A stretch of DNA of 53,108 nt from positions 1-53,108 of IMG/VR virus record IMGVR_UViG_3300037076_000071, one strand, 5' to 3'. Shown piece after piece: positions 1,320 through 53,099 of the stretch. This stretch comes from a virus (lineage: Duplodnaviria; Caudoviricetes). The notes below the pieces were generated by a model. That model did no database searches. It worked only from the letters and a program-made list of their open reading frames with translations, and was not told where the DNA came from. Each line of letters begins with the position of its first letter. The stretch's first letter is position 1. Position numbers and translations under genes: made by a program.

Positions 1320-2290
1320 AACTTTATGGGCATTCTGAATTTCAACTTTGTGGGATGAGCTTTGTGCTTGGCTTTGTGCAATTGATACATCTATTGACAT
1401 CTGAAGCATGTGATGTACACGAAGTTGACATTTGTGAAAAACGTGTAAAAACGCTGTGCTGTGTGTACGTGAAGGGAAGAACGTCTGGATCTGAAGCCGC
1501 AACGCACGAGGGACACCACAAAGCCGCCGCCCTACAAAGCTCTTTGCACCACAAAGCCCAATGAATACGGCCCATCCAAGGCCCATCCCCATGAATTCAA
1601 AGCACTTTGCACTATAAAGCAAAGCTCTTTACAGCACAAAGCAGAGCCATGCAGCGCCCATGCAGAGGCAATTTAAGAGTTTCGGATATTAAACTCCGAA
1701 ATTATTCTAGCTGTGTGTGGACGCTCGGCTGTGTGCTGTGTTGCTCTGCGAAGCTCGGCTGTGTGAATCGGCGTAGCGAAGCGAACGCCAAGGCAAGCGA
1801 AAGGCGCAGGCCCGGACAGCGACGAACGCAAACGCCGATGAGTTGTCGATTGCATCTGAAAGCCGTTCGTTTGCAACAAAAATTGCAACACACAGCCGAA
1901 GGCCCGACGCAAAGCTGTGTGGATTCAACGAGATGCAGAGCGCTTTCGGACTTGGAAATCAACTCCGAATCGCACCGAAGCGCATGGATATCGCTGTGTG
2001 TCGCCGCCTGATCTGATCCGATTCGCCGCATGATCTGCGTTGAATGCGTATGCGATTCGCCGCATGAATGCACAGAGCAAAGCGCTTTGTGATGCAGAGT
2101 GCTTGGCGGCATTTCGGAGTTTAATATCCGAATATCCGAAAACACAGTGTTTTTCGACTTTGGGTTCCCATGCCCAAGGGTTATACTAACCGGCCCCTCA
2201 TGTATTTCGGGAGGGAAATATTTCTCCCAAGGTACCATCCGCCACAAAGCCGTCAAAAAAATTTTCCAAAAAATTTTCCTGAAAAGGTAC
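1320..2290. repeat. repeat-rich intergenic region at strand switch (candidate replication origin)
   Basis: About 10 copies of (C/T)ACAAAGC in both orientations, GCTGTGTG copies, 22-bp inverted repeat 1681-1702/2111-2132, tandem AAAAAATTTTCC 2256-2279. Confidence 0.6.
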
Positions 2291-2493
2291 CGGGCGGCTG
2301 GAGTCCCTTTGTGATAATAGGGACATTTCCTCTCGCTCGATCTCTTCCTGCATCCGGCGAATCTCTTCCATGTCAACTTTGGGGAGTCCCGGTCCTTGAG
2401 GTTTCTCAATCTGTCGTAGAAGCTCCAAGTGTTCCCAGGTGACTACGTACCGGCAGAGGAAGCCACCATCTAAATACCACCGAGAATAATACC

Positions 2494-3170: not shown

Positions 3171-3569
3171 ATGCTCACCTTCGACCAATTCATACTCCAG
3201 GAAGCGACAACCGGCCCGAAGTCCTTCAAACGGGCTAAGATCAACTCTGTGATACCCAGACAGAAGAAGGTAGGTGGGATGAAGTCGATGGGTGGGATGA
3301 AACCAAAGTTCAAGAAGCCGCCGAAGGCCCCGAAGGGTGGCGGTTTCCTGAATGCCTTAGCGCCGCCGACGAAGATGAAGAACCCCTTGATGCCAACGGC
3401 GGGCAAGAAGAACAAGAACCCGTTCCTGGCGAAACCAAAGAAACCATTGGTGAAGAAGAAGAACGCAATGATGCCGAAGGGGAAGATGCCGGGTGTGTCC
3501 GGGATCAAGAGACCGAAGCCATTGGGAACGATGTTAGGGCAGTGGGCTAAGAAGAAGTTGGGAATTTAG
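3171..3569 (+). CDS. very basic K/P/M-rich protein, putative internal head protein
   Basis: N-terminus MLTFDQFILQE resembles the T4 internal-protein capsid targeting sequence (MKTYQEFIAE); remainder Lys/Pro low complexity. Confidence 0.65.
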   Translation: MLTFDQFILQEATTGPKSFKRAKINSVIPRQKKVGGMKSMGGMKPKFKKPPKAPKGGGFLNALAPPTKMKNPLMPTAGKKNKNPFLAKPKKPLVKKKNAMMPKGKMPGVSGIKRPKPLGTMLGQWAKKKLGI

Positions 3570-3771
3570 TAGGATCGAGCCAGCATTTCTGACAGTAATA
3601 CCCAGGCTTGCCATTGGGATAGAGTTCAGCCAGCTTTGGGTCGAGGTTCAATTGGAAGCCCTGTCGAATCGGGCCGGTGTAGAGGCAATCCTCGCCGTCG
3701 CAATACCCATAGCCGTCCGCAGTGATCCAAGGTTCCATACCCCACAATAACACAAAAGGCGTAATTTCCAC
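3547..3771 (-). CDS. hypothetical protein with two Cys pairs
   Basis: CDGEDC and CQKC motifs. Confidence 0.55.
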   Translation of the reverse strand: MEITPFVLLWGMEPWITADGYGYCDGEDCLYTGPIRQGFQLNLDPKLAELYPNGKPGYYCQKCWLDPTKFPTSS

Positions 3772-3899
3772 AATCAGCTTTGTCCCTTCTACGGGTTTCC
3801 CCTCCGGTTCAAATCTGACCCCGCCGTCGTCTTACTGCACTGAAGCGGTGGTGAAAACTACGCCCTTCAAAACTCAAATAATAAAAAATTGAAAGTTAA

Positions 3900-4470
3900 T
3901 AGGTGTGTTGTTTTTAGCGCATGTCTCTACCTCACTTGGCGTTCGACTTGGCACCTGGATGAAGGTACCAAGCCTAATGATAGCACATGCTGATACTCTG
4001 TAAGCCACTTGCCGCATCTGTGTAGCTCTCGTTGCCACACGTCCGAAGGCTGGTCTCATTTCGCAACATGTCATCCGCTATAAAGGCCGTTTCGATCAGT
4101 GCTTGGTTCATTCAAGAACCTTTCCTGGCCCACTTTCGGCGGAACCGCAGGACAGAGCACACTGAAAAGCTGGTTAATTCTTTCCAACCCTACCTGCTCT
4201 ATGTCAGGCTATATCCGGGGATTAGGTTTCAGCTTGGGGCACACCAGCGGCGGGTTTTAACCCTCCTATGCCTCGCACCACACGCTCTTTGCTCGAATCG
4301 CCGTCCTCGTATGGGAAGATGGGCTAATGACGAGCGGTTATATCCTCACAGCCGGTTGAAAAATCATGGATTCACTTCCTTTCTCTTTGGGATGGCGGGC
4401 CGCTCTATTGCTTCGGATCAGTGTCGTAGGCTTTTAATGTCCACCAACTCTGTCCTGCCCGCCATCCCCA
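3900..4470 (-). ncRNA. candidate large structured non-coding RNA (~570 nt)
   Basis: No credible ORF; many helices: 4389-4400/4457-4468 (12 bp perfect), 3945-3956/3963-3974, 3919-3924/3985-3990, 4021-4026/4034-4039, 4105-4109/4116-4120, long-range 4147-4157/4448-4458; strand inferred from flanking genes and G-U pairs. Confidence 0.6.
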
Positions 4471-4520
4471 TCATGGGTATACGGATTTGAGTGTGTCGCT
4501 TCGCATTTCATTCGCCACGC

Positions 4521-4874
4521 TCACTGAGATTGGTTCTGTGTGGTTTTTAGTGCCGCCTTAACTACGGTCAGTAATTCGCCCCGCTCCTCTTGGGGCACTG
4601 GAAACCCTTCTACTTCACGCTGGAAACTCGTGAAGGAATCTCCAACCTTGATCTCTTCGAGGTTGGTATTGTCGGGATCGCTGAAGTGGTAGTCCTCGAA
4701 CGGCGTCGGGCAAGAGCATCCAGAATCAGTGGCGTAGAAGATTCTGCCTGTTGGCTCATGCTTCACCACCAGCAGCGTGTTGTATTCGTAGGAGAGATCG
4801 GCTTCGTCAAGCTCTCCTAGCTTTACCAAGCCAACTTCGTTGGGCTTGTTGTTGGTGTCGTAATATGGATTCAT
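4521..4874 (-). CDS. phage hypothetical protein
   Basis: AAGGA SD; motif YEYN...ATDSGCSCPTPFE resembles small phage proteins. Confidence 0.8.
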   Translation of the reverse strand: MNPYYDTNNKPNEVGLVKLGELDEADLSYEYNTLLVVKHEPTGRIFYATDSGCSCPTPFEDYHFSDPDNTNLEEIKVGDSFTSFQREVEGFPVPQEERGELLTVVKAALKTTQNQSQ

Positions 4875-5015
4875 TTCGTCCTTCTTGGCTCTCCAGCCAC
4901 ACTAAAATCCGAAGTCAGATGAGAAGTTCACTACCTCGTCAACCACACTCAAATCCGGATAGCCCCCATCATTTTGCGTCCGTGCGCTTTGTTTCTGTCT
5001 CTCGCTTACAAACCC

Positions 5016-5057
5016 AGAATACCACGGCATATCGGATCTGTCAATAGGTACATCAAT
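5016..5057 (-). promoter_or_regulatory. sigma70-type promoter with upstream operator palindrome
   Basis: TTGACA-17-TATTCT reading leftward with operator ATAGGTACATCAAT at 5044-5057. Confidence 0.7.
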
Positions 5058-5436
5058 TTTTCTTTGAAGAATTTTGGTGGCGTCGTATTGTCCTGTGGTT
5101 TCAACATGTTTCCAGTATATGCCCGTTCCGCTATACGTCAATTTAGGATGCCGATTCCTGGCGATTCTAGCCCCGTGGCTGTGTTGTGGGCCATGCCCAG
5201 TCCCTACAGAGCCGCTGGCCTTTCCCGGCCCTTCAAAGGCTTCCGATCTCTAAATAGCAGTAGGTGTGCTCCGTCTCTTCACACTCAAAAGCGGCTTGTC
5301 GCTACGACGGGCACGAGAAAAATGCTAGAGCGCATTTTGTTCTAGCTATTGCCACCATTGGCACTGCAAGCCGCTAAAACCTCTTTAGAATCAGCAAGAC
5401 TTGTCAACACCATGGCTGTGTGGTAATCTACTGGCG

Positions 5437-5895: not shown

Positions 5896-6200
5896 TCTTT
5901 GCATTCATTGTGGTGACGCTGGCGACATTTGCGTGTGCCACTACCATAGCGACGACACCATTGCTTGAAGCCTTTCGACGCCGGATGTACGACCGGAGTC
6001 TGATGTGGGGCAAGCTCGTGTCCTGTCCTTACTGCCTGTCGCACTGGATTGGTGGGCTGTTTGTGGCGATTAGTCCTGATCTGAGACACATACTCCCGCA
6101 CACCAATGCTTTTATGGCGTGGGTGTTGATAAGTTTCTCTGTAGTAGGGCTGTGTGCGGTGCTTGATGTGATGTTGGACTTGAGGTCTAGGTTCAAGTGA
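5892..6200 (+). CDS. DUF1360-like membrane protein
   Basis: GKLVSCPYCLSHW motif among transmembrane segments. Confidence 0.7.
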   Translation: MIFAFIVVTLATFACATTIATTPLLEAFRRRMYDRSLMWGKLVSCPYCLSHWIGGLFVAISPDLRHILPHTNAFMAWVLISFSVVGLCAVLDVMLDLRSRFK

Positions 6201-6427
6201 GATCTCATTGGCACAATCCCGAAGGCGCTGAAAACGATTTGTGCTTTGTCTACAGTCATGACATCAACGTAGAGCATCCACGAGACGGAGAAGTGTTCAC
6301 AGCGGAGACACGAGGTCACGGACCAGTGACCTTTGTGAACGTGCCGAAATCTCTCCTAGACGGGATCTTTGTAAATATTAAGACACATGACTATCGACCT
6401 GGAACGACTAAGGCAATTGGTTATTGA
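6197..6427 (+). CDS. hypothetical protein
   Basis: GTGA-coupled ORF in operon. Confidence 0.6.
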   Translation: MRSHWHNPEGAENDLCFVYSHDINVEHPRDGEVFTAETRGHGPVTFVNVPKSLLDGIFVNIKTHDYRPGTTKAIGY

Positions 6428-6602
6428 CTTACAGCAAAAATTAGATCCGCATTTTCCCAATAACAACAATCCACTCCGACGCAGCATAGCCGATCTTTTG
6501 AAGCATCGGGGGCGGCGTATTGTGTTGGTCCCGCCTGAAATTGCAGACGCCATTCGAGCGCATTTGCAAGCACAAAAGCAATCTGCTACACTGGACGCAT
6601 GA
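6387..6602 (+). CDS. hypothetical protein
   Basis: ORF coupled to the downstream gene. Confidence 0.6.
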   Translation: MTIDLERLRQLVIDLQQKLDPHFPNNNNPLRRSIADLLKHRGRRIVLVPPEIADAIRAHLQAQKQSATLDA

Positions 6603-7819
6603 GTCATTTCACTGTTCTTGTAGTTGGTGAAGATGTAGAAGGGCAACTCGCCCCTTTTCACGAATTTGAATGTACTGGCGCAGATGACCAGTACATAGTC
6701 GAAGTAGACAAGACGGAAGAAGCCAGAGAGAGCTACGAAAAGGACACCGAGACACGTGTCAAGTCTCCGTCTGGCAAGCTCCAAAGCAAATTCACCAAGA
6801 AGGGCGAATACAAAAAGCGTTTCTTGCGTGAGCCGACCCCGGAAGAGACCAAAGAAATTGGTCCGATTGCTGGTTCTGGTGGCAGTCGAAAGCTGCGTTG
6901 GACCTCGCACGACTGGAAAGACGGCAAGGGCTATCGGACCATGATCGTGGTGATGCCAGAGGGATGGTCTGAGTGTGAAGTGCCGTCTTCCGAAATTCTC
7001 CCGTTTGCGGAATGGATTGAAGGCTACTACGGCCACAAGATCGTGCCTTATGGAAAGAAGCCCGATCTTGCCGGAAAACACAAGTACGGCTACACGTTGG
7101 TAACTAAGGTGGGTGAAGTTATCAAGACGGTATCCCGGACGAACCCAGAAGCGCAATGGGACTGGTACCAGATTGGTGGCCGGTGGAACGGTTTCTTCAA
7201 AATGAAGCCGGAAGCTGCGAATGCTGGCGTACAGGGCACACCGTCGTGGGGCAGTGAGCCGACTGAACCTGGACATGCCGATCAAGCTCGAAAGGGTGAA
7301 ATTGACATCGAAGGAATGCGCTCTGTGGCTGGTGACAAGGCCGGTGCGAAGCACGACCTGTTCCACGACATTCTCGCCAAGAATCCGGGCTATGTCAGTT
7401 TTGATGCGATCCTGGATGCGGCATTGGCGGAAGCCGGATTGCCCAAAGAAGAACCTGACGATGAGTCGGAACTTACTGCGGACTTGCGGGAAAAGGTTGT
7501 CGATGCTGCACGTAAGGAATACCGGGCACAGCCAACGGAGAAAGCTCTGATGGCCGTCGAAGACTTCCGCTGTATGTGGGAAGGGTACGGCGACTTGCTC
7601 ACACAGACACGGGAGCAATATGTCCAGGCTGCACGTGACCGGGCCTTTACGACCTTTGCGGTGCTCGAAAACGGCAACTGGCATGAAAAGGGCAAGATGG
7701 GTTGGTTTGCCTGTGTGTCGAACGAAAAGGAACAGAGCGAATGGAACGGTCAGTTCAACGCTCTGATCGACTCGCTGTCTGACGACGCTCTACTGACTGT
7801 CGTTGACTGCCATATCTAA
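6599..7819 (+). CDS. phage protein of unknown function (406 aa)
   Basis: MSHFTVLV start, NPEAQWDWYQIGGRW, WHEKGKMGWFAC and terminal VVDCHI motifs recalled from a widespread phage family. Confidence 0.85.
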   Translation: MSHFTVLVVGEDVEGQLAPFHEFECTGADDQYIVEVDKTEEARESYEKDTETRVKSPSGKLQSKFTKKGEYKKRFLREPTPEETKEIGPIAGSGGSRKLRWTSHDWKDGKGYRTMIVVMPEGWSECEVPSSEILPFAEWIEGYYGHKIVPYGKKPDLAGKHKYGYTLVTKVGEVIKTVSRTNPEAQWDWYQIGGRWNGFFKMKPEAANAGVQGTPSWGSEPTEPGHADQARKGEIDIEGMRSVAGDKAGAKHDLFHDILAKNPGYVSFDAILDAALAEAGLPKEEPDDESELTADLREKVVDAARKEYRAQPTEKALMAVEDFRCMWEGYGDLLTQTREQYVQAARDRAFTTFAVLENGNWHEKGKMGWFACVSNEKEQSEWNGQFNALIDSLSDDALLTVVDCHI

Positions 7820-26508: not shown

Positions 26509-26753
26509 TCTACCTCATCTATGTTGATCTCAAACACTTTGACCTGTTCTTTCGTCAGGTCGTCTCGCACGCCGTTGGTGCATTCGGTGGCGACTTGGAT
26601 CATAGCGGCTTTGTCGCAACTCATGAAACGAAGGAACCACGGAAACACAGCGGTACCATCGTTGGGCAACCGCTTCTGAAATTCCGGTGAGAAAGCGACT
26701 CCGTAGAACGTCACCGGAATTTCAGCGTTGAAACTTTCGCAGCGTATCTTCAT
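26502..26753 (-). CDS. hypothetical protein
   Basis: TGG-TAAGCT extended -10 six nt before ATG. Confidence 0.65.
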   Translation of the reverse strand: MKIRCESFNAEIPVTFYGVAFSPEFQKRLPNDGTAVFPWFLRFMSCDKAAMIQVATECTNGVRDDLTKEQVKVFEINIDEVEW

Positions 26754-31804: not shown

Positions 31805-32434
31805 ATGACACGCAGCGAAGCCGGTCGATTAGGAGCATTGAAGACGATTCAAATTAGAAAGGAACAAGCAATTGTACGATACCGGAGCAACCCAAAATTT
31901 TGCTTGTTTTGCGGTACAATCATCACAGTCAAGGATGAGCACGCCAACCATGCGTTTTCCAAAATCAAGTACAAAAAATTTTGCAATCAATCGTGCGCCG
32001 CCAAGTACAACAACAAAAAATTTGTGAAAAGGAAAAGAGAATTGCAAGTGTGCCTTCGGTGCGCTGCGTCTCTGAATTGGTGGGCCAAGAAATTTTGTAG
32101 CCGTGATTGTTTCATAAAATATCGGCAAGAGACAAACGACATTTTTCAAAGGAAGACTGAAATTAGTTCATTGACATTGCGGCGGGCAATGTTGCGTCAT
32201 AATGTTGTGTATCAGTGTGCTATGTGTGGGATTGGTCCTGAATGGAATAAGCAAGCTCTAGTGCTACAGGCCGACCACAAAGATGGCAATAGTTCCAATA
32301 ACATGCTTGATAATTTAAGATTTCTCTGCCCAAATTGTCATAGCCAGACGCCCACTTATGGGATAAAGAACAAAGGAAGCGGACGACTTAGTAGAAGGAC
32401 TGGAGCGGGAAGAAGGAATCTAACCTCCGCATAA
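31805..32434 (+). CDS. HNH homing endonuclease with N-terminal zinc fingers
   Basis: KKFCNQSC and KKFCSRDC; CAMCG...LQADHKDGNSSNNMLDNLRFLCPNCHSQTPTY. Confidence 0.9.
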   Translation: MTRSEAGRLGALKTIQIRKEQAIVRYRSNPKFCLFCGTIITVKDEHANHAFSKIKYKKFCNQSCAAKYNNKKFVKRKRELQVCLRCAASLNWWAKKFCSRDCFIKYRQETNDIFQRKTEISSLTLRRAMLRHNVVYQCAMCGIGPEWNKQALVLQADHKDGNSSNNMLDNLRFLCPNCHSQTPTYGIKNKGSGRLSRRTGAGRRNLTSA

Positions 32435-32475
32435 AGATTTTGCAGATCTTGACCTTAACACTTGGCTATTCCCGC
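32401..32475 (-). tRNA. tRNA-Cys(GCA)
   Basis: GCGGGAA/TTCCCGC-T-CCA; AAGAT-CT-GCA-AA-ATCTT; atypical T-loop TTAGATT. Confidence 0.85.
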
Positions 32476-32484
32476 TTAGAAATT

Positions 32485-32566
32485 TGGAGCACGGTGAGGG
32501 ATTTGAACCCCCGACATATGTCAGCTTTGCAGGCTGATGCCTTGAACCAGACTTGGCGAACCGTGC
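32485..32566 (-). tRNA. tRNA-Cys(GCA)
   Basis: GCACGGT/ACCGTGC-T-CCA; TCAGC-CT-GCA-AA-GCTGA; GGTTCAAATCC. Confidence 0.9.
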
Positions 32567-36754: not shown

Positions 36755-37053
36755 GACTGAAAGGGTGGAAGATGTCAGAGGAACAGAAACAAAAGATTCG
36801 TGCGACCATGATAGGTCGTACTTATTCGGAAGAGCGTCGGGCAGCGATGCGAAAACCACGCAAACCTCTTAGTGAAGCGCATAAACAGAAAATTAGCGAA
36901 TCAATGGAAAAATATCTGAACAGCCTAACAGAAGATGAATTCACAGAAAGAATGATGCGTACATGGACAGCAAATTTAGAATCGAACGCCGACTACGCTC
37001 CACTCGATCCTAAAATTATGGACAAAATGAACGTATTCCTTGGTCTCAAATAA
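36751..37053 (+). CDS. NUMOD3 DNA-binding protein (endonuclease remnant)
   Basis: MSEEQKQKI, SEERRAAM, LSEAHKQKISES; no nuclease domain. Confidence 0.7.
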   Translation: MRLKGWKMSEEQKQKIRATMIGRTYSEERRAAMRKPRKPLSEAHKQKISESMEKYLNSLTEDEFTERMMRTWTANLESNADYAPLDPKIMDKMNVFLGLK

Positions 37054-40739: not shown

Positions 40740-43700
40740 ATGCCTCTTGACCCGAAGAAGACAAAGAACGGAGTAAATCTCAACGAGATCGACGTAAGCA
40801 AACTCGCCTTGGTTGACAAGGAAGGTTTGATTGACGATCTTGGCAAGCGTCTGAAGACAGAGATCAAAGGTGCCTTTACTGAAGCTATCAAATCTGTAAA
40901 GCCAGAGATTAAAGGTATTGTCGATGACGCTGTAAAGTCTCAAAATTCTTCTTCGGGTGGATCACAAGCACCCTCTTCATCAACGAAGCAGCAAACAACT
41001 TCTAGCGGTGGTGGAGGAAATAGTGGCGGTGGTGGAACCCCGCCGCCCAACCCACCAAAACCGCCTAAGCCACCCAAGACACCGAAGCAACCCAAAGCTC
41101 CAAAGGTTCCAAAGCCACAAATGAATCCTGGTGGCGGCAACGTGTATTCTGACATAGGAAAGGAGATTGCCGAAAATCTTGACGAACTAACGGAAAGTTA
41201 CCAGACTCTCAATCTCAAAGAATTAGAACTAGCACAAAAGAGACTGTCCGACGTACAAGAGTCCATTCGATTTTCGACTTTTGGAAAAGAACAAGCTCTA
41301 CTTTCTGCTGCGACGGCAGATCTTGAAAAAGAACTAGCGAATGAAGCAAAGAAGCGTGGCACGACCCTCGGAAAGATTGGCAATTTCCTAGACCGGGAAA
41401 ATATCAACGCAGCCAGCATCATTACAGGCATCTTCAGCGATTCTCCGATGGTCGGTTTGATGACCAAGGCCGTGATGGAGTCAATTCGCCACAAGCGTGC
41501 TGCCGCCCAAAAGCAAAAATCCGATCAGTTGAAAATTGGAGACATCAAACAGCATCTTCCCCGCCCTGATGACTTCCACCAACAGAACCAGCAACAGACG
41601 GCACCACAGGCCCCACAGCAGCCTCAGACGCAGCAACAGGCTCCACAGCAGCCACCACAACAAGCAACGCAGCCAGCGCAGCCCCAAGCACAAAGTCCAA
41701 CTCCTGTTTCTCCACAAGAACAGCAACCAAATCCGAAAGGACCGGCGCAAGTCCACAACATTGGCGACTACGCAGATCGGCGTCCACCCGAGCGTGTCAA
41801 CGATGAGGAAGATGACGAAGAAGGAAAGAATGCAGAAATGGTTGCTCTTCGTCTCCACAAGCAAAGCAAGCGACGTGCCCGTGGAAACTATCAACGTGAG
41901 AAGTATGACCAAGGTTACGAGCAAGGAAAGAAAGCTGAACTAGAGAAACTACACGCCGAATTAGAGGAAGCAAAAAAGAAAGCAGAAGAGATTAAGAAGA
42001 ATCCACCAGAGCCAAAACCAGGAGAAGACATTTTTGGCACTCCAGACGACAACGCTGAGTCTGACGTTAGATTACTTGAGCACAAAGTTGCATCCATTCA
42101 AAAACTTCTTGACGACATAGAAAAGCAGAAGGCCGATGAAGCCGACGAAAATAAGCGTGCCCTTGAATACGCAAGTAAGGGCGAACGCAAGCAGAACAAT
42201 CTTGTCGAAATGAAGCCGAAGGCTCCAGAACGAGTTCAACAAGAACCCATTGTAATGGGCAAGGCGGCATTAGAGCATAACGCCGATCCAGAGACACAAC
42301 TCCATCCAGAAAGAGAAGAGTTGGGCGATAACAAAATTGTCAGCATTCTCAGTGGAATGAAAACGACTGAAGAGAAGGAAAGCAAGACTCTGGACGTTTT
42401 CAGTTTCAAGAACAAGAACAATCGCATCAATCCATTTCTCGAACTGCGTAAGCTAAGTCAACAGCAATTGACCGAGCTTGAAAAAATCAGTAGTATCATG
42501 GCGCTTCAGCTTGAACAGGCTAAGTTGGCAAATGATGCTGCCCAACGTGAGACCAAAGAAAAAGGTCTTGGTGGCGAAGGTGGCGGCGGTGGAATTGTCG
42601 AAGGCGCTGCAAAAAAGAAGACCAAGGAAAGCGGTGGTTTGGGAATCATGGATGCAATCTTCGGCGGTGTCGAAGGTCTGCATGGCGTTCAGTTACTCAC
42701 ACAAGGCATCAAAGGCATCAAAAACTTCGGAAAGAATCTTTTCAAGGGTAAGGGTGCGAAAGGTGCCGAGAAGGTAGCCGAAGGTGTCGGTGAAGGTGCA
42801 AAAGTTGCTGAAGGTGTCGGTGAAGGCGCAAAGGTTGCTGAAGGTGCTGGTAAAGGTGCAGAAGCCCTCAAAACTGTAGAAGGTGTAGGTAAGGGAGCCG
42901 AAGCGGTCAAAGAAGTCGGGTTCATGAGCAAGTTGTTGGGTAAGGTTCCTGGTGGTGAAAAGGCCCTTGAATTAGGTTCTAAAATTCCAGGAATGTCAAA
43001 GCTTGGTGGCGCTGCAAAAGGATTGGGCAAAGTTGCTCCCTGGTTGCAATTAGTATTATCCGGTTTGGACTTCCACCAAGGATACAAGCAAGCAGCGAGT
43101 TTTATTGGTAAAAAAGAAAGCGATGTTGATACTGGTGATAAAATTGGTTCCGGTGGAGCCAATGTTGTAGGCAATATCGTTGGTAGCCCTATTGATATGA
43201 TAGGGGCGCTCTTCGGCCAGGATTTGAATACCACTGGTTATATCAGAAAGAAACTGAATAATGCAGGACAAGCAATCAAAAATGTCGGAGAAGATGGTCC
43301 GGTTCAAGCAACACAGACGGAATCAGCTAAGAAGCTCCAAGACCGTATTAAAAAGTTGAAGGAACAAAATCCGGGTATGACCGATGCTGTTGCTAGAAGC
43401 AAAGCTATCGAGCAATTGCTTGCAGAAAAGGCACAGAGTTCATCACCAACGTCACCAACACCAGCGGCACCACAGCCCGCACCATCTACGTCGCCAACAC
43501 CAGCGGCACCACAGCCCGCACCATCTACGTCGCCAACACCAGCACCAACAACCCCGGCACCATCTACATCACCAGTCGGTGGATCGGTGAACACCACCAG
43601 TGCGGGCGTTCTTCAGTCAACCACATCTCCGTTTTCGACTAGTTTAACTAAGTCATCTACAGCAATGAATAAAGGTGCTCGTCTGGCTCCTAGTAGCGTC

Positions 43701-44528
43701 AAAGGTACAGCTAGTCAAACAACTGGAGAAGTGGCTGCTGCTGCGATGGAAGCGGAGAAGGAAACTGGATTTCCTGCAAAAGTAATCATGGCCCAATTTG
43801 CATTGGAAAGCAATCGTGGGAAAAGTGTCACTGGCGATTACAATTTTTTTGGAGTGACAGGAAGCGGAACTGCTGGAAGTAAGATGGTAAAGACCAGAGA
43901 AGAAATAACTCCTGAATATGCTGCGAAACATTTTCCTGATGCAGTTTTAGATTCAAATCAGTCGGGTGTTGCTCCCGGTAAAAAGCGATACATTGTGCAT
44001 CGTCCGTTTGCCGCATACAAGTCAGTGAAAGATTCTGTGGATCAACACATCAAACTTCTTTCACAAAGTAAACGATACAAACCCGCATTCGAGAAGTACA
44101 AAAAGACTAAGGACGCCGATCAGTTGATGCGTGATATTGCCGCTGCTGGTTACGCTACAGGGAATAATTACGGAGACCATTTGGTAAAGGTTTCTCAAAG
44201 CAGCGACTTGGTTTCTGCTTTATCTGGTGGGACGACACCAACACCAGCAAATGGTCAGACGCAACCACCTAAGACTGAATTGGCAAGTGCAGCGCCAGTA
44301 CAACAGCCACCGACTCCACCAGAAGCAGGAAAGCGGCTGACTCAAGCATCCATGCAGAACACGGATCTTGTAAGAACTGCATCAGCCGCACCACCGCCAG
44401 CAAATAGCCAGAATGTGTTTGCTCCATCTAACGTCACACAGAACACCAGTATTCTTCCAGGTGTGAAAGCGCAGAATACAGAAAGCACGTATCAGCGCAC
44501 GATGGACCAAATGTATGTGGCGACTTGA
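40740..44528 (+). CDS. tape-measure-like virion protein with GH73 (FlgJ-like) glucosaminidase domain
   Basis: 1262 aa, helical and low-complexity, after gp26/gp51; C-terminal VIMAQFALESNRG...YNFFGV...FAAYKS...RY...AAGYAT. Confidence 0.8.
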   Translation: MPLDPKKTKNGVNLNEIDVSKLALVDKEGLIDDLGKRLKTEIKGAFTEAIKSVKPEIKGIVDDAVKSQNSSSGGSQAPSSSTKQQTTSSGGGGNSGGGGTPPPNPPKPPKPPKTPKQPKAPKVPKPQMNPGGGNVYSDIGKEIAENLDELTESYQTLNLKELELAQKRLSDVQESIRFSTFGKEQALLSAATADLEKELANEAKKRGTTLGKIGNFLDRENINAASIITGIFSDSPMVGLMTKAVMESIRHKRAAAQKQKSDQLKIGDIKQHLPRPDDFHQQNQQQTAPQAPQQPQTQQQAPQQPPQQATQPAQPQAQSPTPVSPQEQQPNPKGPAQVHNIGDYADRRPPERVNDEEDDEEGKNAEMVALRLHKQSKRRARGNYQREKYDQGYEQGKKAELEKLHAELEEAKKKAEEIKKNPPEPKPGEDIFGTPDDNAESDVRLLEHKVASIQKLLDDIEKQKADEADENKRALEYASKGERKQNNLVEMKPKAPERVQQEPIVMGKAALEHNADPETQLHPEREELGDNKIVSILSGMKTTEEKESKTLDVFSFKNKNNRINPFLELRKLSQQQLTELEKISSIMALQLEQAKLANDAAQRETKEKGLGGEGGGGGIVEGAAKKKTKESGGLGIMDAIFGGVEGLHGVQLLTQGIKGIKNFGKNLFKGKGAKGAEKVAEGVGEGAKVAEGVGEGAKVAEGAGKGAEALKTVEGVGKGAEAVKEVGFMSKLLGKVPGGEKALELGSKIPGMSKLGGAAKGLGKVAPWLQLVLSGLDFHQGYKQAASFIGKKESDVDTGDKIGSGGANVVGNIVGSPIDMIGALFGQDLNTTGYIRKKLNNAGQAIKNVGEDGPVQATQTESAKKLQDRIKKLKEQNPGMTDAVARSKAIEQLLAEKAQSSSPTSPTPAAPQPAPSTSPTPAAPQPAPSTSPTPAPTTPAPSTSPVGGSVNTTSAGVLQSTTSPFSTSLTKSSTAMNKGARLAPSSVKGTASQTTGEVAAAAMEAEKETGFPAKVIMAQFALESNRGKSVTGDYNFFGVTGSGTAGSKMVKTREEITPEYAAKHFPDAVLDSNQSGVAPGKKRYIVHRPFAAYKSVKDSVDQHIKLLSQSKRYKPAFEKYKKTKDADQLMRDIAAAGYATGNNYGDHLVKVSQSSDLVSALSGGTTPTPANGQTQPPKTELASAAPVQQPPTPPEAGKRLTQASMQNTDLVRTASAAPPPANSQNVFAPSNVTQNTSILPGVKAQNTESTYQRTMDQMYVAT
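42770..42860 (+). repeat. 30-bp coding tandem repeat (KVAEGVGEGA)
   Basis: About 3 near-identical copies, degenerate copies follow. Confidence 0.8.
43452..43575 (+). repeat. 39-bp coding tandem repeat (SPTPAAPQPAPST)
   Basis: Two near-perfect copies plus a degenerate third. Confidence 0.8.
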
Positions 44529-48113: not shown

Positions 48114-48291
48114 AAGTCATTGTCTCCGCATAGCATACACATGTGCAGAAGAATCCGCCTTCATAAGCAGAATCGCCATTCGGGTAAGTATGAGGACAAC
48201 TTTTTGTGTCGAATCGTGTTGGCTCATTCTCACAAAGTTTCAGTACGTCATCTCGGAAGCGCTCATACGACGGCTGTATTGACGATGGCAT
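48100..48291 (-). CDS. small hypothetical protein
   Basis: Overlaps both neighbours in operon. Confidence 0.5.
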   Translation of the reverse strand: MPSSIQPSYERFRDDVLKLCENEPTRFDTKSCPHTYPNGDSAYEGGFFCTCVCYAETMTYDRV

Positions 48292-49426
48292 TTTTCATTC
48301 TCCGCTTCGCTTTTACCAAGTCTTTTTCACAGTCTTTGAGCAGAGCGTCACAGGCTTCTTTGCGGGTCTTCCAACAGTCTACGCCCATTTGATAAGCTGT
48401 CCTGGGTGCGGCTGATTCTTCTTTGTCGAGAGTTACCATTCCGTAAAGAGGATCGTAGTAATAACCTTCAAATTTGACCACACAATCGTAGTCGACGCAT
48501 TTTACCGCAAGATATCCTTTGCACACTTTTCCTTCCGCAAATCTATGACTTTTTATGGAGTGCTCTCGACAGAAAGCACATAGATTTTTTACTTTTATCG
48601 TTTCTCCATTTTGATTTGTAATTTGCCACCAAAAACTAAGACCCTTTGATGGAGTTGGCTGTCTCATTTTCCTTTTTGCTTCCTCAGTGTGCCGATAAGG
48701 ATGATTGCGTTTTGTTTCTCTTATTTTCTTCTTTGTTTCTTCGGATCGCTGAATACCAAACAGCGGGTTATTCTGTCCACAACCGTGTTTGATTTTCCTT
48801 GAAGATTCACTTAACTTGAGTCTGGTTTCTTGACTACAAACTCGATTGGCCATCTTAGCTCGTGTTTCTGGAGATGCCTTAGTACCTCGTCTCGCATTGG
48901 CAATTTTCTGGCAGGACTCGGTGGAAAGATGTTTACCAAAAAATGGATTGTCTTTTCCGTATCGTTTCGGTTGGCGTTTTGCAGCCTCACTTATCCTGCG
49001 CCTACTTTCGTCAGTGTATCCTCCATGACCTTTTAATGCGATACTCAATTTGGCTTTCTGTTCGTCGGTGAGTGGACCACGTTTTTTGCGAACATCGGGT
49101 ACCCGGCTCGAAGCGCCCATCACTTTTCGGTGCATGTTGTATCCATTCTGACCGATGTTGCTGTGATATTGTTCGATCAATGCCGGTTCAACATATTCCA
49201 ACATTGCTAACTTGTCTTTACCGCAACAGATGACTTCAAATTCAAAATTCTCCCATCCATGCTTTCTGATCGCTTGATGAAAGACATAACCACGCCCGGT
49301 TTCGGCGTCTCGTTTGTGATTACGCCATCTTGTTTTTGGATCAGCAGCGAACCCAATATAAACCTTGCCGTTGTCTTTGTTCGTCGCTTTGTAACAATAG
49401 TAAATCTTGCATGATTCTTGCTTCAT
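48263..49426 (-). CDS. GIY-YIG homing endonuclease with NUMOD3 repeats and unrelated C-terminal domain
   Basis: CYKATNKDNGKVYIG, RW..H, AIRKHG, NGYN; several SEET..K. repeats; extra ~75-aa tail. Confidence 0.9.
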   Translation of the reverse strand: MKQESCKIYYCYKATNKDNGKVYIGFAADPKTRWRNHKRDAETGRGYVFHQAIRKHGWENFEFEVICCGKDKLAMLEYVEPALIEQYHSNIGQNGYNMHRKVMGASSRVPDVRKKRGPLTDEQKAKLSIALKGHGGYTDESRRRISEAAKRQPKRYGKDNPFFGKHLSTESCQKIANARRGTKASPETRAKMANRVCSQETRLKLSESSRKIKHGCGQNNPLFGIQRSEETKKKIRETKRNHPYRHTEEAKRKMRQPTPSKGLSFWWQITNQNGETIKVKNLCAFCREHSIKSHRFAEGKVCKGYLAVKCVDYDCVVKFEGYYYDPLYGMVTLDKEESAAPRTAYQMGVDCWKTRKEACDALLKDCEKDLVKAKRRMKNAIVNTAVV

Positions 49427-52382: not shown

Positions 52383-52456
52383 TGGAGCCGAATGTGGGGA
52401 TCGAACCCACATTTCCACCTTACCAAAGTGGCGTCCTACCATTGAACGAAATCGGC
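52383..52456 (-). tRNA. tRNA-Thr(GGT)
   Basis: GCCGA.T/..TCGGC-T-CCA; CCACT-TT-GGT-AA-GGTGG; GGTTCGATCC. Confidence 0.9.
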
Positions 52457-52457
52457 C

Positions 52458-52532
52458 TGGAGCCGGATCGGAGAATCGAACTCCGGTCTGTGGTTTACGA
52501 GGCCACCGCTCTACCAACTGAGCTAATCCGGC
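52458..52532 (-). tRNA. tRNA-Thr(CGT)
   Basis: GCCGGAT/ATCCGGC-T-CCA; TAGCTCAGTTGGTAGAGC; CT-CGT-AA loop; AGTTCGATTC. Confidence 0.9.
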
Positions 52533-52744: not shown

Positions 52745-53064
52745 GCTTTAATCGGTTCTAGGATTTTCACGCTCTCACCTAGACTTTTACGCCACCGGGC
52801 CGTTATTTAACAGAGTGTACCTACTCCGTCCGTCGCTGTTTAGGCAGCGAGAGGAAGTGCAAACGTTTCCGTAGCAGTTATTGTTCTTCCTGGGTTTCGG
52901 GTAGAAGACCCGGTAAGCCCCACTTCGCCAACTTTTCATCCTGTCGAGACCATTGCGCCCCCGAAACTTTATCAGTGCCTAAAAGACTGAAGAATTTGGT
53001 GGAGGCGAGGGGAGTCGAACCCCTGTCCAAAATGCGTTAAGCTCGTTTCGACATCATGCTTACA
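52745..53064 (-). ncRNA. ssrA: circularly permuted (two-piece) tmRNA
   Basis: Acceptor piece ~53064-52997 ends GGTTCGACTCCCCTCGCCTCCACCA; 34-nt spacer; coding piece starts GGGGGCGCAATGGTCTCGACAGG at 52962; G3-U70 pair; tag ATETFALPLAA* at 52875-52840; 3-prime end of coding piece approximate. Confidence 0.9.
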
Positions 53065-53068
53065 GTTC

Positions 53069-53099
53069 TATTTATAGCACGATACCGCCGATCTGTCAA
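53069..53099 (-). promoter_or_regulatory. dual sigma70 / T4-late promoter of the tmRNA-tRNA operon
   Basis: TTGACA-17-TATAAATA. Confidence 0.75.

Follow-up and report, generated by a model that had tools for sequence, protein, structure and literature searches.

A candidate early noncoding RNA gene in an ORF-free region of an uncultured T4-like phage from peat

Setting of the region

The window analysed here, a stretch of 53,108 bases from an IMG/VR virus record rated 38% complete by CheckV, has its largest ORF-poor gap between a DUF7574 gene (4874-4521) and an ORF of 74 amino acids (3771-3547). What does this gap contain, and is it the large structured RNA that was originally predicted from the letters alone? 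The phage itself is a T4-like myovirus. PHROG matches in the window are to the gp32 single-strand binding protein, a gp2-like DNA end protector, the baseplate tail-tube cap, the tail tube and a GIY-YIG homing endonuclease, and the nearest named relatives of its gp32 are those of cyanophages (approximately 41-48% identity). Parts of the interval 3400-5000 were found in 20 public runs from 16 studies; the six runs with at least half of the sampled words of this interval are all labelled peat metagenome, and the record itself may derive from one of these six. Short contigs of two runs, X7 and X8, have only 4011-4065 in common with the locus. The carriers would form a small peat lineage of T4-like myoviruses, and the locus is real, conserved and noncoding. 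The gap and its two neighbours are as follows:

~4472-3772, minus strand: ORF-free region, with a single-copy body of ~700 nt
4466-4972, minus strand: DUF7574 cassette, the ORF 4874-4521 with flanking repeats; absent from one strain
3547-3771, minus strand: Cys-rich ORF of 74 aa, an optional cassette; a contig of a variant strain (X8) joins 3495 to 3769

The window has a second ORF-poor unit at 1400-2490, and the possibility that the region is a copy of it was rejected (score 28 against a null of 27). A further ORF, 6356-7684, gave no matches when used as bait and is probably not a gene.

A homologous unit in a distant relative

With gp32 as bait, four IMG/VR records were found whose gp32 is >60% identical to that of the window phage, two of them with long contigs: G001 (gp32 73% identical, 118 kb, 61% complete) and G002 (gp32 63% identical, 405 kb, rated complete). 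In G002, an ORF-free stretch is collinear with ~450 nt (4350-3901) of the ~570 nt for which an RNA had been proposed. The shared parts are:

~4350-4165, minus strand: conserved core, aligned with G002 L070 ~5937-6105; 56% of 203 columns identical
4219-4248, minus strand: near-invariant 30-mer, 27/30 bases identical to G002; single-copy in the window
~4046-3901, minus strand: 3' domain, weakly homologous to G002 L070 6142-6295

Aligned between 4347-4169 and L070 5940-6101, the core reaches a local score of 60, compared with 26.5 +/- 3.3 for the null (maximum 39 in 200 shuffles) and with 37 or less for control stretches. The 3' domain scores 41 against a null of 22.4 +/- 3.4 (maximum 36), a value that none of 200 shuffles attains; it contains a 7-bp hairpin (4040-4020), a 12-bp hairpin (3974-3945) with the conserved loop UUCAUCC, and a conserved tail, AUGCGCUAA. 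The flanking genes differ between the two phages: G002 has no DUF7574 gene, and the 74-aa ORFs downstream are unrelated. As judged from these alignments, the region and the G002 unit are homologous. A start island common to both, TGAGCGTGGC, is at the level expected by chance for a 10-mer, and an internal duplication of the core received no support (score 19 against a null of 20.6).

G002 is the only relative in which a counterpart was detected. G001 is closer by gp32; no copy was found in the available 61% of its genome, and short matches to it were judged to be chance. Searches by sequence were equally restricted in outcome: blastn against 50,697 phage records gave no match, an exact 22-mer had no match in IMG/VR viral contigs, and a pattern scan of genome contigs returned nothing. 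An 18-nt pattern hit four stretches in IMG/VR, of which only G002 is real and three are coding or repeat look-alikes. A gapped pattern hit 21 stretches in the same collection, again with only G002 real (17 represent one unrelated conserved sequence and three are single unrelated stretches). Protein scans of IMG/VR and of metagenome contigs by way of the neighbouring genes yielded no further homologue, the DUF7574 matches in metagenome contigs amounting to two distant genes. When run on the window genome, G001 and G002, a covariance model recovers its training sequences (n=2) only, and none of 26 loci falls below E 0.5. For the 3' domain, the G002 counterpart was missed by CM and HMM models built from one sequence, whether structure was included or not.

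Coding potential, introns and Rfam families

The statement that the region holds no credible ORF was upheld. No frame is longer than 66 aa on the minus strand or, from a TTG start, 152 aa on the plus strand. Natural differences in the X8 strain variant break both this 152-aa ORF and a 45-aa ORF on the minus strand: between 3955 and 4446 the variant has deletions of 6, 1, 1, 17 and 3 nt together with three single-base insertions. Its two flanking coding pieces carry substitutions only (one difference in 232 nt and eight in 257 nt). The alignment gaps relative to G002 are not multiples of 3, and the ORFs that overlap the homology are unrelated between the two phages, except for 17 residues encoded by the 30-mer itself. 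The region is noncoding.

A covariance-model scan with Rfam 15 gave no match at gathering score; the known families without a match include GOLLD, ROOL, OLE, HEARO, raiA, RNase P, group I and II introns, 6S, tmRNA and the riboswitches. When E values up to 10 are admitted, the interval 3500-4900 draws just two families, snoR126 (E 5.5) and TLS-PK6 (E 9), both at chance level, and five loci from G001 and G002, including L061 with the G002 unit, have no match at E up to 0.1.

The possibility of a group I or group II intron is rejected. The upstream DUF7574 gene (Pfam match, E 3.2e-14) encodes 117 aa, and the stop-to-stop frames of six homologues span 91-157 codons; the gene is thus full length, which leaves neither a split gene nor an intron, and no downstream frame resembles DUF7574. 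A decayed DUF7574 paralogue is likewise rejected, as no frame of the gap resembles this family.

Fold energy and strand

As a whole, the region folds unremarkably: the z score is -1.43 for the minus strand, with 3/20 shuffles folding as well, and -0.23 for the plus strand. Local z scores on the minus strand are -4.6 at 4380-4480, where the 12-bp 5' hairpin lies, -3.2 at 3851-4000, where the hairpin at 3974 lies, and -3.7 at 3751-3900. The middle of the region (4000-4350) has a z score near 0, and the conserved core is at ~0 in both phages. Averaged over 3751-4500, the local z score is approximately -1.3 on the minus strand compared with 0.0 on the plus strand. A further stem lies at the 3' end of the region:

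3868-3851 / 3772-3755, minus strand: 18-bp stem with 4 G-U pairs; two hairpins and the GTG start of the 74-aa ORF lie inside it

In a sliding-window scan this stem has a z score of -4.85 on the minus strand versus -1.27 on the plus strand. Its G-U pairs, like those of the hairpin at 3974, are compatible with the minus strand only.

Comparative evidence for structure

From the alignment of the two cores, RNAalifold predicts 28 pairs, 8 of which are compensatory; 4/500 partner shuffles score as high. Two compensatory changes fall in a 6-bp helix (4272-4267 / 4243-4238), the 3' strand of which lies within the 30-mer, and four in a 7-pair hairpin (4324-4300). With simple column shuffling, the consensus energy of the core has a z score of -5.2. 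We also used a conservative null in which columns are shuffled within conservation classes and then refolded. Under this null the z score is -2.8 (5/500 as low), and the 8 compensatory pairs compare with a mean of 5.7, with 99/500 shuffles at least as high, in an alignment of two sequences. The consensus energy of the antisense strand is as good (z -3.3).

For the 3' domain, the MAFFT/RNAalifold consensus is poor (-3.55 kcal/mol) because the stems differ in length. When folded separately, both phages have the same layout, an outer stem plus one long and one small hairpin. The UUCAUCC loop of the long hairpin is retained on stems that differ between the phages; the stability of this hairpin in G002 does not exceed that of shuffles. 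Taken together, the evidence for a conserved structure is suggestive but weak, and with only one distant homologue no consensus structure can be drawn. The ornate fold of GOLLD/ROOL class that had been proposed is not borne out: the z scores of the whole region (-1.4) and of the core (~0 in both phages) are low in magnitude, and the two-sequence covariation does not exceed the conservative null.

The 5' hairpin and the proposed switch

The original prediction also included a two-state switch, in which segments in and at the edge of a 5' hairpin loop would pair with a stretch about 300 nt downstream. The elements concerned are:

4389-4468, minus strand: 5' hairpin of 12 perfect G+C-rich pairs with a 56-nt loop; z -4.6, pair probability 0.99
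4147-4165, minus strand: 3' partner of the long-range pairing, an exact complement to 4458-4448 plus 4424-4418, just downstream of the core

All the stems described lie at the coordinates given, and they are rarer than chance would produce. The 12-bp stem (4468-4457 / 4400-4389, minus strand) is perfect and closes a loop of 56 nt; 4458-4448 (GCAGGACAGAG) is the exact complement of 4157-4147, and 4424-4418 (ACACTGA) that of 4165-4159. The hairpin 3974-3963 / 3956-3945 does have 12 bp, two of which are G-U, so that its pairing is not perfect. The local partner said to compete for the downstream stretch, 4103-4096, offers only 6 complementary bases; a stronger competitor exists at 4200-4178, and the energy of its duplex with the target is -20.4 kcal/mol versus -20.1 for the 11-mer.

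Of 1000 dinucleotide shuffles of 3890-4520, 29 contain an inverted repeat of at least 11 nt, 3 contain one of at least 12 nt within 120 nt, and 1 contains a bipartite 11+7 pairing. Across the window there are 11 perfect inverted repeats of at least 11 nt within 450 nt; 30 shuffles average 4.0 and never exceed 8. An isolated 11-mer inverted repeat is not rare at the scale of the window; the 11+7 pairing is statistically unusual and without comparative support. In G002 there is no counterpart of either the 12-bp hairpin or the 11+7-nt pairing. The downstream partner, 4147-4165, is unchanged in the X8 variant contig that covers 3955-4189; the X8 variant contigs shown do not span 4448-4468.

Since the loop and the downstream stretch cannot pair in a way that nests with the 12-bp stem, their pairing would form either a pseudoknot or an alternative fold. 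When enforced as a nested alternative, it yields -198.1 compared with -204.5, a cost of 6.4 kcal/mol, and has an ensemble probability of ~0; the pseudoknot form lies outside the scoring of the folding tools used. Given this cost, and a 12-bp hairpin and 11+7 arms that are outside the conserved part or absent in G002, the two-state switch was not sustained. The hairpin, whose 5' foot is the junction of the DUF7574 cassette, is a lineage-specific 5' stem-loop at a recombination junction. The 11+7-nt complement is lineage-specific as well, and would be either a pseudoknot-type contact or a DNA-level repeat.

Cassettes and strain variation

Two sets of repeats bound the DUF7574 cassette: perfect inverted repeats of 14 nt (4957-4944 / 4495-4482) and direct repeats of 9 nt (4972-4964 / 4474-4466). 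The direct repeat at the upstream junction of the region has GGGG as its last letters, where a G-rich/C-rich stem has its foot. One X8 contig matches the window up to 4472 and then continues with the promoter leader, ~4973-5002 (by eye, ~24/30 letters). Because it joins the leader to 4472, the X8 strain is without the DUF7574 cassette, its promoter leader being followed directly by the 12-bp hairpin. The two X8 junctions (4472 and 3495/3769) are on separate contigs with a depth of only ~3-6 each. Both cassettes are polymorphic between strains. At the other DUF7574 loci, an inverted repeat of at least 10 nt is present in 0/6. Three loci with DUF7574 (L003, L004 and L005) have no gap after the gene; a fourth, L002, was excluded, its sequence ending 129 nt past the gene.

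Two stretches of the region itself also vary:

4337-4370, minus strand: strain-replaced patch, with 13 substitutions and 2 indels in the X8 variant contig
4251-4267, minus strand: optional hairpin tip GGGU-UAAA-ACCC; the X8 variant lacks 17 nt and G002 lacks 14 nt

The 17-nt deletion in X8 and the 14-nt gap in G002 remove the same hairpin tip, and the underlying helix can still form. Among the 110 MFE pairs covered in the X8 variant, 93 are unchanged and one is kept by a one-sided change, whereas 4 no longer pair and 12 are deleted; none shows a compensatory change. The fraction of changes that hit paired positions (34/54) is in keeping with the fraction of positions that are paired (356/604). 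Between strains, the region changes faster than the DUF7574 gene.

Predicted signals of transcription

Upstream of the DUF7574 gene is a predicted promoter:

5016-5056, minus strand: putative clade-typical early promoter, with an upstream motif plus TTGACA, a 17-nt spacer and TGgTATTCT; consensus scan 10/12 with TG

Transcription from it is predicted to start near 5009. Its 18-nt motif, with TTGACA as the last six letters, occurs 6 times in the window (0.01 expected), 16 times in G002 and 3 times in G001; the reversed control pattern has 0 matches. Most copies are followed after 17-18 nt by an extended -10, TGnTAWTCT (4/6 in the window, and the G002 copy shown). We read this motif as the putative early sigma-70-type promoter of the clade.

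In G002, the corresponding promoter (L070 5837-5878) lies 52 nt upstream of the homology. A terminator-like hairpin (L070 6334-6380; 15 bp plus a T-run) is found ~40 nt past the end of the homology, and it ends ~20 nt ahead of the 74-aa ORF of that phage. By its predicted signals, the G002 copy is a stand-alone ORF-free unit of ~0.5 kb. In the window, no terminator was called at the 3' end of the region. The RNA library X20 contains a single identical contig of 181 nt (3982-4162) and nothing else on 3400-5000; this contig may stem from RNA or from carried-over DNA and is a sign of neither transcription nor silence, and assembled contigs carry no strand, end or expression-level information.

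Interpretation

We favour the reading, at a probability of about 0.5, that the region is an undescribed noncoding RNA gene of ~0.45-0.7 kb with presumed early transcription. It is a probable phage noncoding RNA gene because it is shared with G002 and, in that phage, stands alone between a predicted promoter and a terminator-like hairpin. Of the large structured phage noncoding RNA first proposed, the noncoding status, the lack of an Rfam match and the probable RNA gene stand, and the ornate structure (whole-region z -1.4) does not. The ancestral layout may have consisted of the clade-typical sigma-70-like promoter, a short leader, the RNA and its end, an arrangement of the type displayed by G002 and by one strain variant of the window phage. 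In the window genome two ORF cassettes would have been added, DUF7574 into the leader and the 74-aa ORF at the 3' end, so that the RNA would now lie within an operon. The RNA might act in trans through the conserved segments of its core and 3' domain, by binding a protein or another RNA.

The strand-specific 18-bp stem over the GTG start of the 74-aa ORF (z -3.7 to -4.9) would also suit a different role, that of a long cis-acting leader or intergenic control region which governs termination, processing or translation of the small ORFs downstream. Small ORFs on the same strand do follow both units, and the terminator-like hairpin of G002 ends ~20 nt before one of them. These ORFs are, however, unrelated to each other, and one X8 contig has no ORF at this position, so the element is not tied to one regulated gene; matches to riboswitch or leader families are absent as well (Rfam 15). 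We consider such a control region unlikely. Less likely again is an element that works as DNA, i.e. a PeSL-like recombination module of the hyperplastic region or a replication origin, with a sequence conserved for DNA binding. Its attraction lies in the strain-polymorphic junctions at both ends of the region (4472 and 3769), the upstream one being the 9-nt direct repeat with GGGG at its end beside the G-rich/C-rich stem; PeSLs are described as sigma-70-like promoters combined with stem-loops of the GGGG...CCCC type, located where indels join (PMC2839356; PMC4122927). The window is also enriched in perfect inverted repeats of at least 14 nt within 1500 nt (4 observed; 40 shuffles average 0.23 and never give more than 1), and the consensus fold energy is equal on both strands. 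Against this, the G-U stems and local z scores favour one strand, no iteron-like repeats occur within 3772-4520, and the 450-nt body and the 30-mer are single-copy, whereas PeSLs are ~100 bp long and repeated through the genome.

The fuller original version, an ornate RNA of ~570 nt in the GOLLD/ROOL/OLE size class that contains a two-state switch or an sRNA-target pair, is now improbable. All of its complementarities are exact, the 11+7 pairing arises in 1/1000 shuffles of the region, and its size and the lack of an Rfam match are consistent with it. But the 12-bp hairpin and the 11+7 partners are without a G002 counterpart, the nested alternative is 6.4 kcal/mol costlier with a pair probability of ~0, the local partner of the target is equally strong, approximately 4 perfect 11-mers within 450 nt are expected per window, and 3/20 shuffles fold as well as the whole region (z -1.43). 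Very improbable, finally, is a functionless, decaying remnant of former ORFan genes in which the stems are chance or leftover terminators. The faster change relative to the DUF7574 gene, the indels and the replaced patch (4337-4370) would fit decay, as would the weak thermodynamic signal in mid-region and the three DUF7574 loci (L003, L004, L005) without a gap after the gene. Neutral DNA would not be expected, however, to remain alignable over ~450 nt, with a 27/30 block, at a gp32 identity of 63%; the G002 unit retains its own promoter and terminator-like hairpin; and no frame resembles the neighbouring gene or is common to the region and G002.

The noncoding RNA gene favoured above could be extended to a more speculative proposal, which we think has a small chance of being correct: a new family of large (~0.5 kb) early structured phage RNAs that are closed by long-range helices, including the contact between the 5' loop and the sequence 300 nt downstream. 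Long-range stems of this kind would also loop out cassettes that insert into the RNA gene, with the 14-bp stem insulating the fold from the DUF7574 insertion.

Comparison with known systems

Few noncoding RNAs are known in T4-like phages. The ~0.5-kb ORF-free unit keeps an early promoter and is alignable at ~63% core-protein identity, and it is therefore a concrete candidate for a new phage RNA. Such an RNA may have roles in early infection, for instance in host takeover, or as a decoy or a regulator. Its practical value is limited for now, with n=2 homologues. A literature search found no description of the element, which does not establish its absence from print.

The stable RNAs C and D of T4 and the cyanophage antisense RNA CfrI are ~120-230 nt long and are located within a tRNA cluster or antisense to a gene. 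The region would resemble them as a noncoding transcript of a T4-like phage; the Rfam scan gave no sign of a sequence relation. GOLLD and ROOL are associated with tRNA genes; the region, in contrast, is not beside such genes, the nearest being 28 kb away. It further differs from GOLLD, ROOL and OLE in having no Rfam 15 match at E up to 10, a weak overall fold and one distant homologue. What it has in common with these RNAs is a length of hundreds of nucleotides, noncoding status, carriage by a phage and an unassigned function (PMC12286853).

PeSL cassettes of T4-type phages are described as ~100 bp long, repeated through the genome and located directly between ORFs (PMC2839356). Several traits of the present locus are similar to what PMC2839356 and PMC4122927 report: a sigma-70-like early promoter motif that is repeated through the genome (6 matches vs 0.01 expected), a G-rich/C-rich stem-loop at a strain-polymorphic junction, a position at indel junctions between close strains (4472, 3495/3769), and single-ORF cassettes that are gained or lost between close strains. 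In contrast to PeSLs as portrayed there, the region has a single-copy, conserved, ORF-free body of ~450 nt and a stem with a 56-nt loop; there is no repeated stem-loop, the stem arm having one 13-nt look-alike elsewhere, which is about the level of chance. The 14-nt inverted and 9-nt direct repeats of the DUF7574 cassette are also not found in the PeSL description, as far as the available text of PMC2839356 extends. The locus shows strain-level gain and loss of single-gene cassettes at short direct repeats beside a G-rich stem, and in this it extends the modular shuffling of T4-type hyperplastic regions to uncultured phages from peat.

The RNase III stems around 16S and 23S rRNA act over a long range in processing, with an entire gene in the loop. 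Perfect inverted repeats of the present locus likewise bracket whole modules, and these could equally be DNA-level cassette ends; other DUF7574 loci, unlike this one, do not have such repeats (0/6). The repeats in question are the 14-nt pair that flanks the DUF7574 ORF, the 11+7-nt pair that flanks the core and the 18-bp stem where the 74-aa ORF starts, and they could be either processing or insulating stems of an RNA or the ends of cassettes at the level of DNA.

The promoter-like motif and a second ORF-poor unit

The sequence TTGATACATCTATTGACA is a promoter-like motif that occurs throughout the clade. Six copies are present in the window (at positions 1382, 5039, 21416, 23567, 27521 and 52020), and further copies are found in two IMG/VR relatives of the phage, G002 (16 copies) and G001 (three copies). 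The motif is followed after 17-18 nt by TGnTAWTCT in four of the six window copies, as well as in the G002 copy.

A perfect copy of the motif (1382-1399) precedes a second stretch that is poor in ORFs:

Features of the second ORF-poor unit
1382-2490, plus strand: second ORF-poor unit, the most notable part of which is 2137-2316
1535-1642: 23-nt direct repeat, three copies
1681-1702 / 2111-2132: perfect 22-nt inverted repeat, arms 408 nt apart

The unit had no match in Rfam. Its 2137-2316 segment aligns with positions 5682-5471 of L070, the G002 locus that carries a homologue of the candidate noncoding RNA, where it lies on the opposite strand; the alignment score is 104, compared to a null of 27 ± 3 (maximum 37). 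In G002, this counterpart and the RNA homologue are arranged back to back with approximately 260 nt between them; in the window, the segment and the RNA locus are 2 kb apart and face each other. The possibility that the second ORF-poor unit is a paralogue of the RNA locus was considered and rejected.

Contigs sharing the 4011-4065 island

Contigs from two public runs, X7 and X8, have only an island of approximately 40-55 nt (4011-4065) in common with the window, and both of its flanks differ. This island includes a 7-bp hairpin and a 12-mer that is found exactly in G002, within the core of the RNA homologue. These contigs could represent additional relatives of the RNA.

The DUF7574 cassette and doubtful ORFs

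The DUF7574 gene resembles a small cassette (4466-4972) that is mobile or can be deleted. Direct repeats of 9 nt and perfect inverted repeats of 14 nt accompany the gene, which is missing from one X8 contig. Flanking inverted repeats of at least 10 nt were found at none of six other DUF7574 loci.

Two mechanically called minus-strand ORFs, 4902-5141 and 6356-7684, are probably not genes. The early promoter at 5056-5016 falls inside the former, while the latter is overlapped by a plus-strand ORF, and a search for its relatives found none.

Other features

The window has an excess of long inverted repeats, to which the hairpin and the widely spaced repeat listed here belong. The phage also encodes a tmRNA of the permuted (two-piece) type, with the tag peptide ATETFALPLAA, as well as two tRNA-Thr and two tRNA-Cys.

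Other features of the window
26676-26725: perfect hairpin, 15 bp with a 20-nt loop
35622-35635 / 36896-36909: perfect 14-nt inverted repeat, arms 1260 nt apart
52749-53089, 52383-52532 and 32401-32566: collectively, the tmRNA and tRNA-Thr/tRNA-Cys genes
40740-44528: protein of 1262 aa that contains internal tandem repeats and resembles an endolysin in its C-terminal part
48263-49426: GIY-YIG homing endonuclease gene
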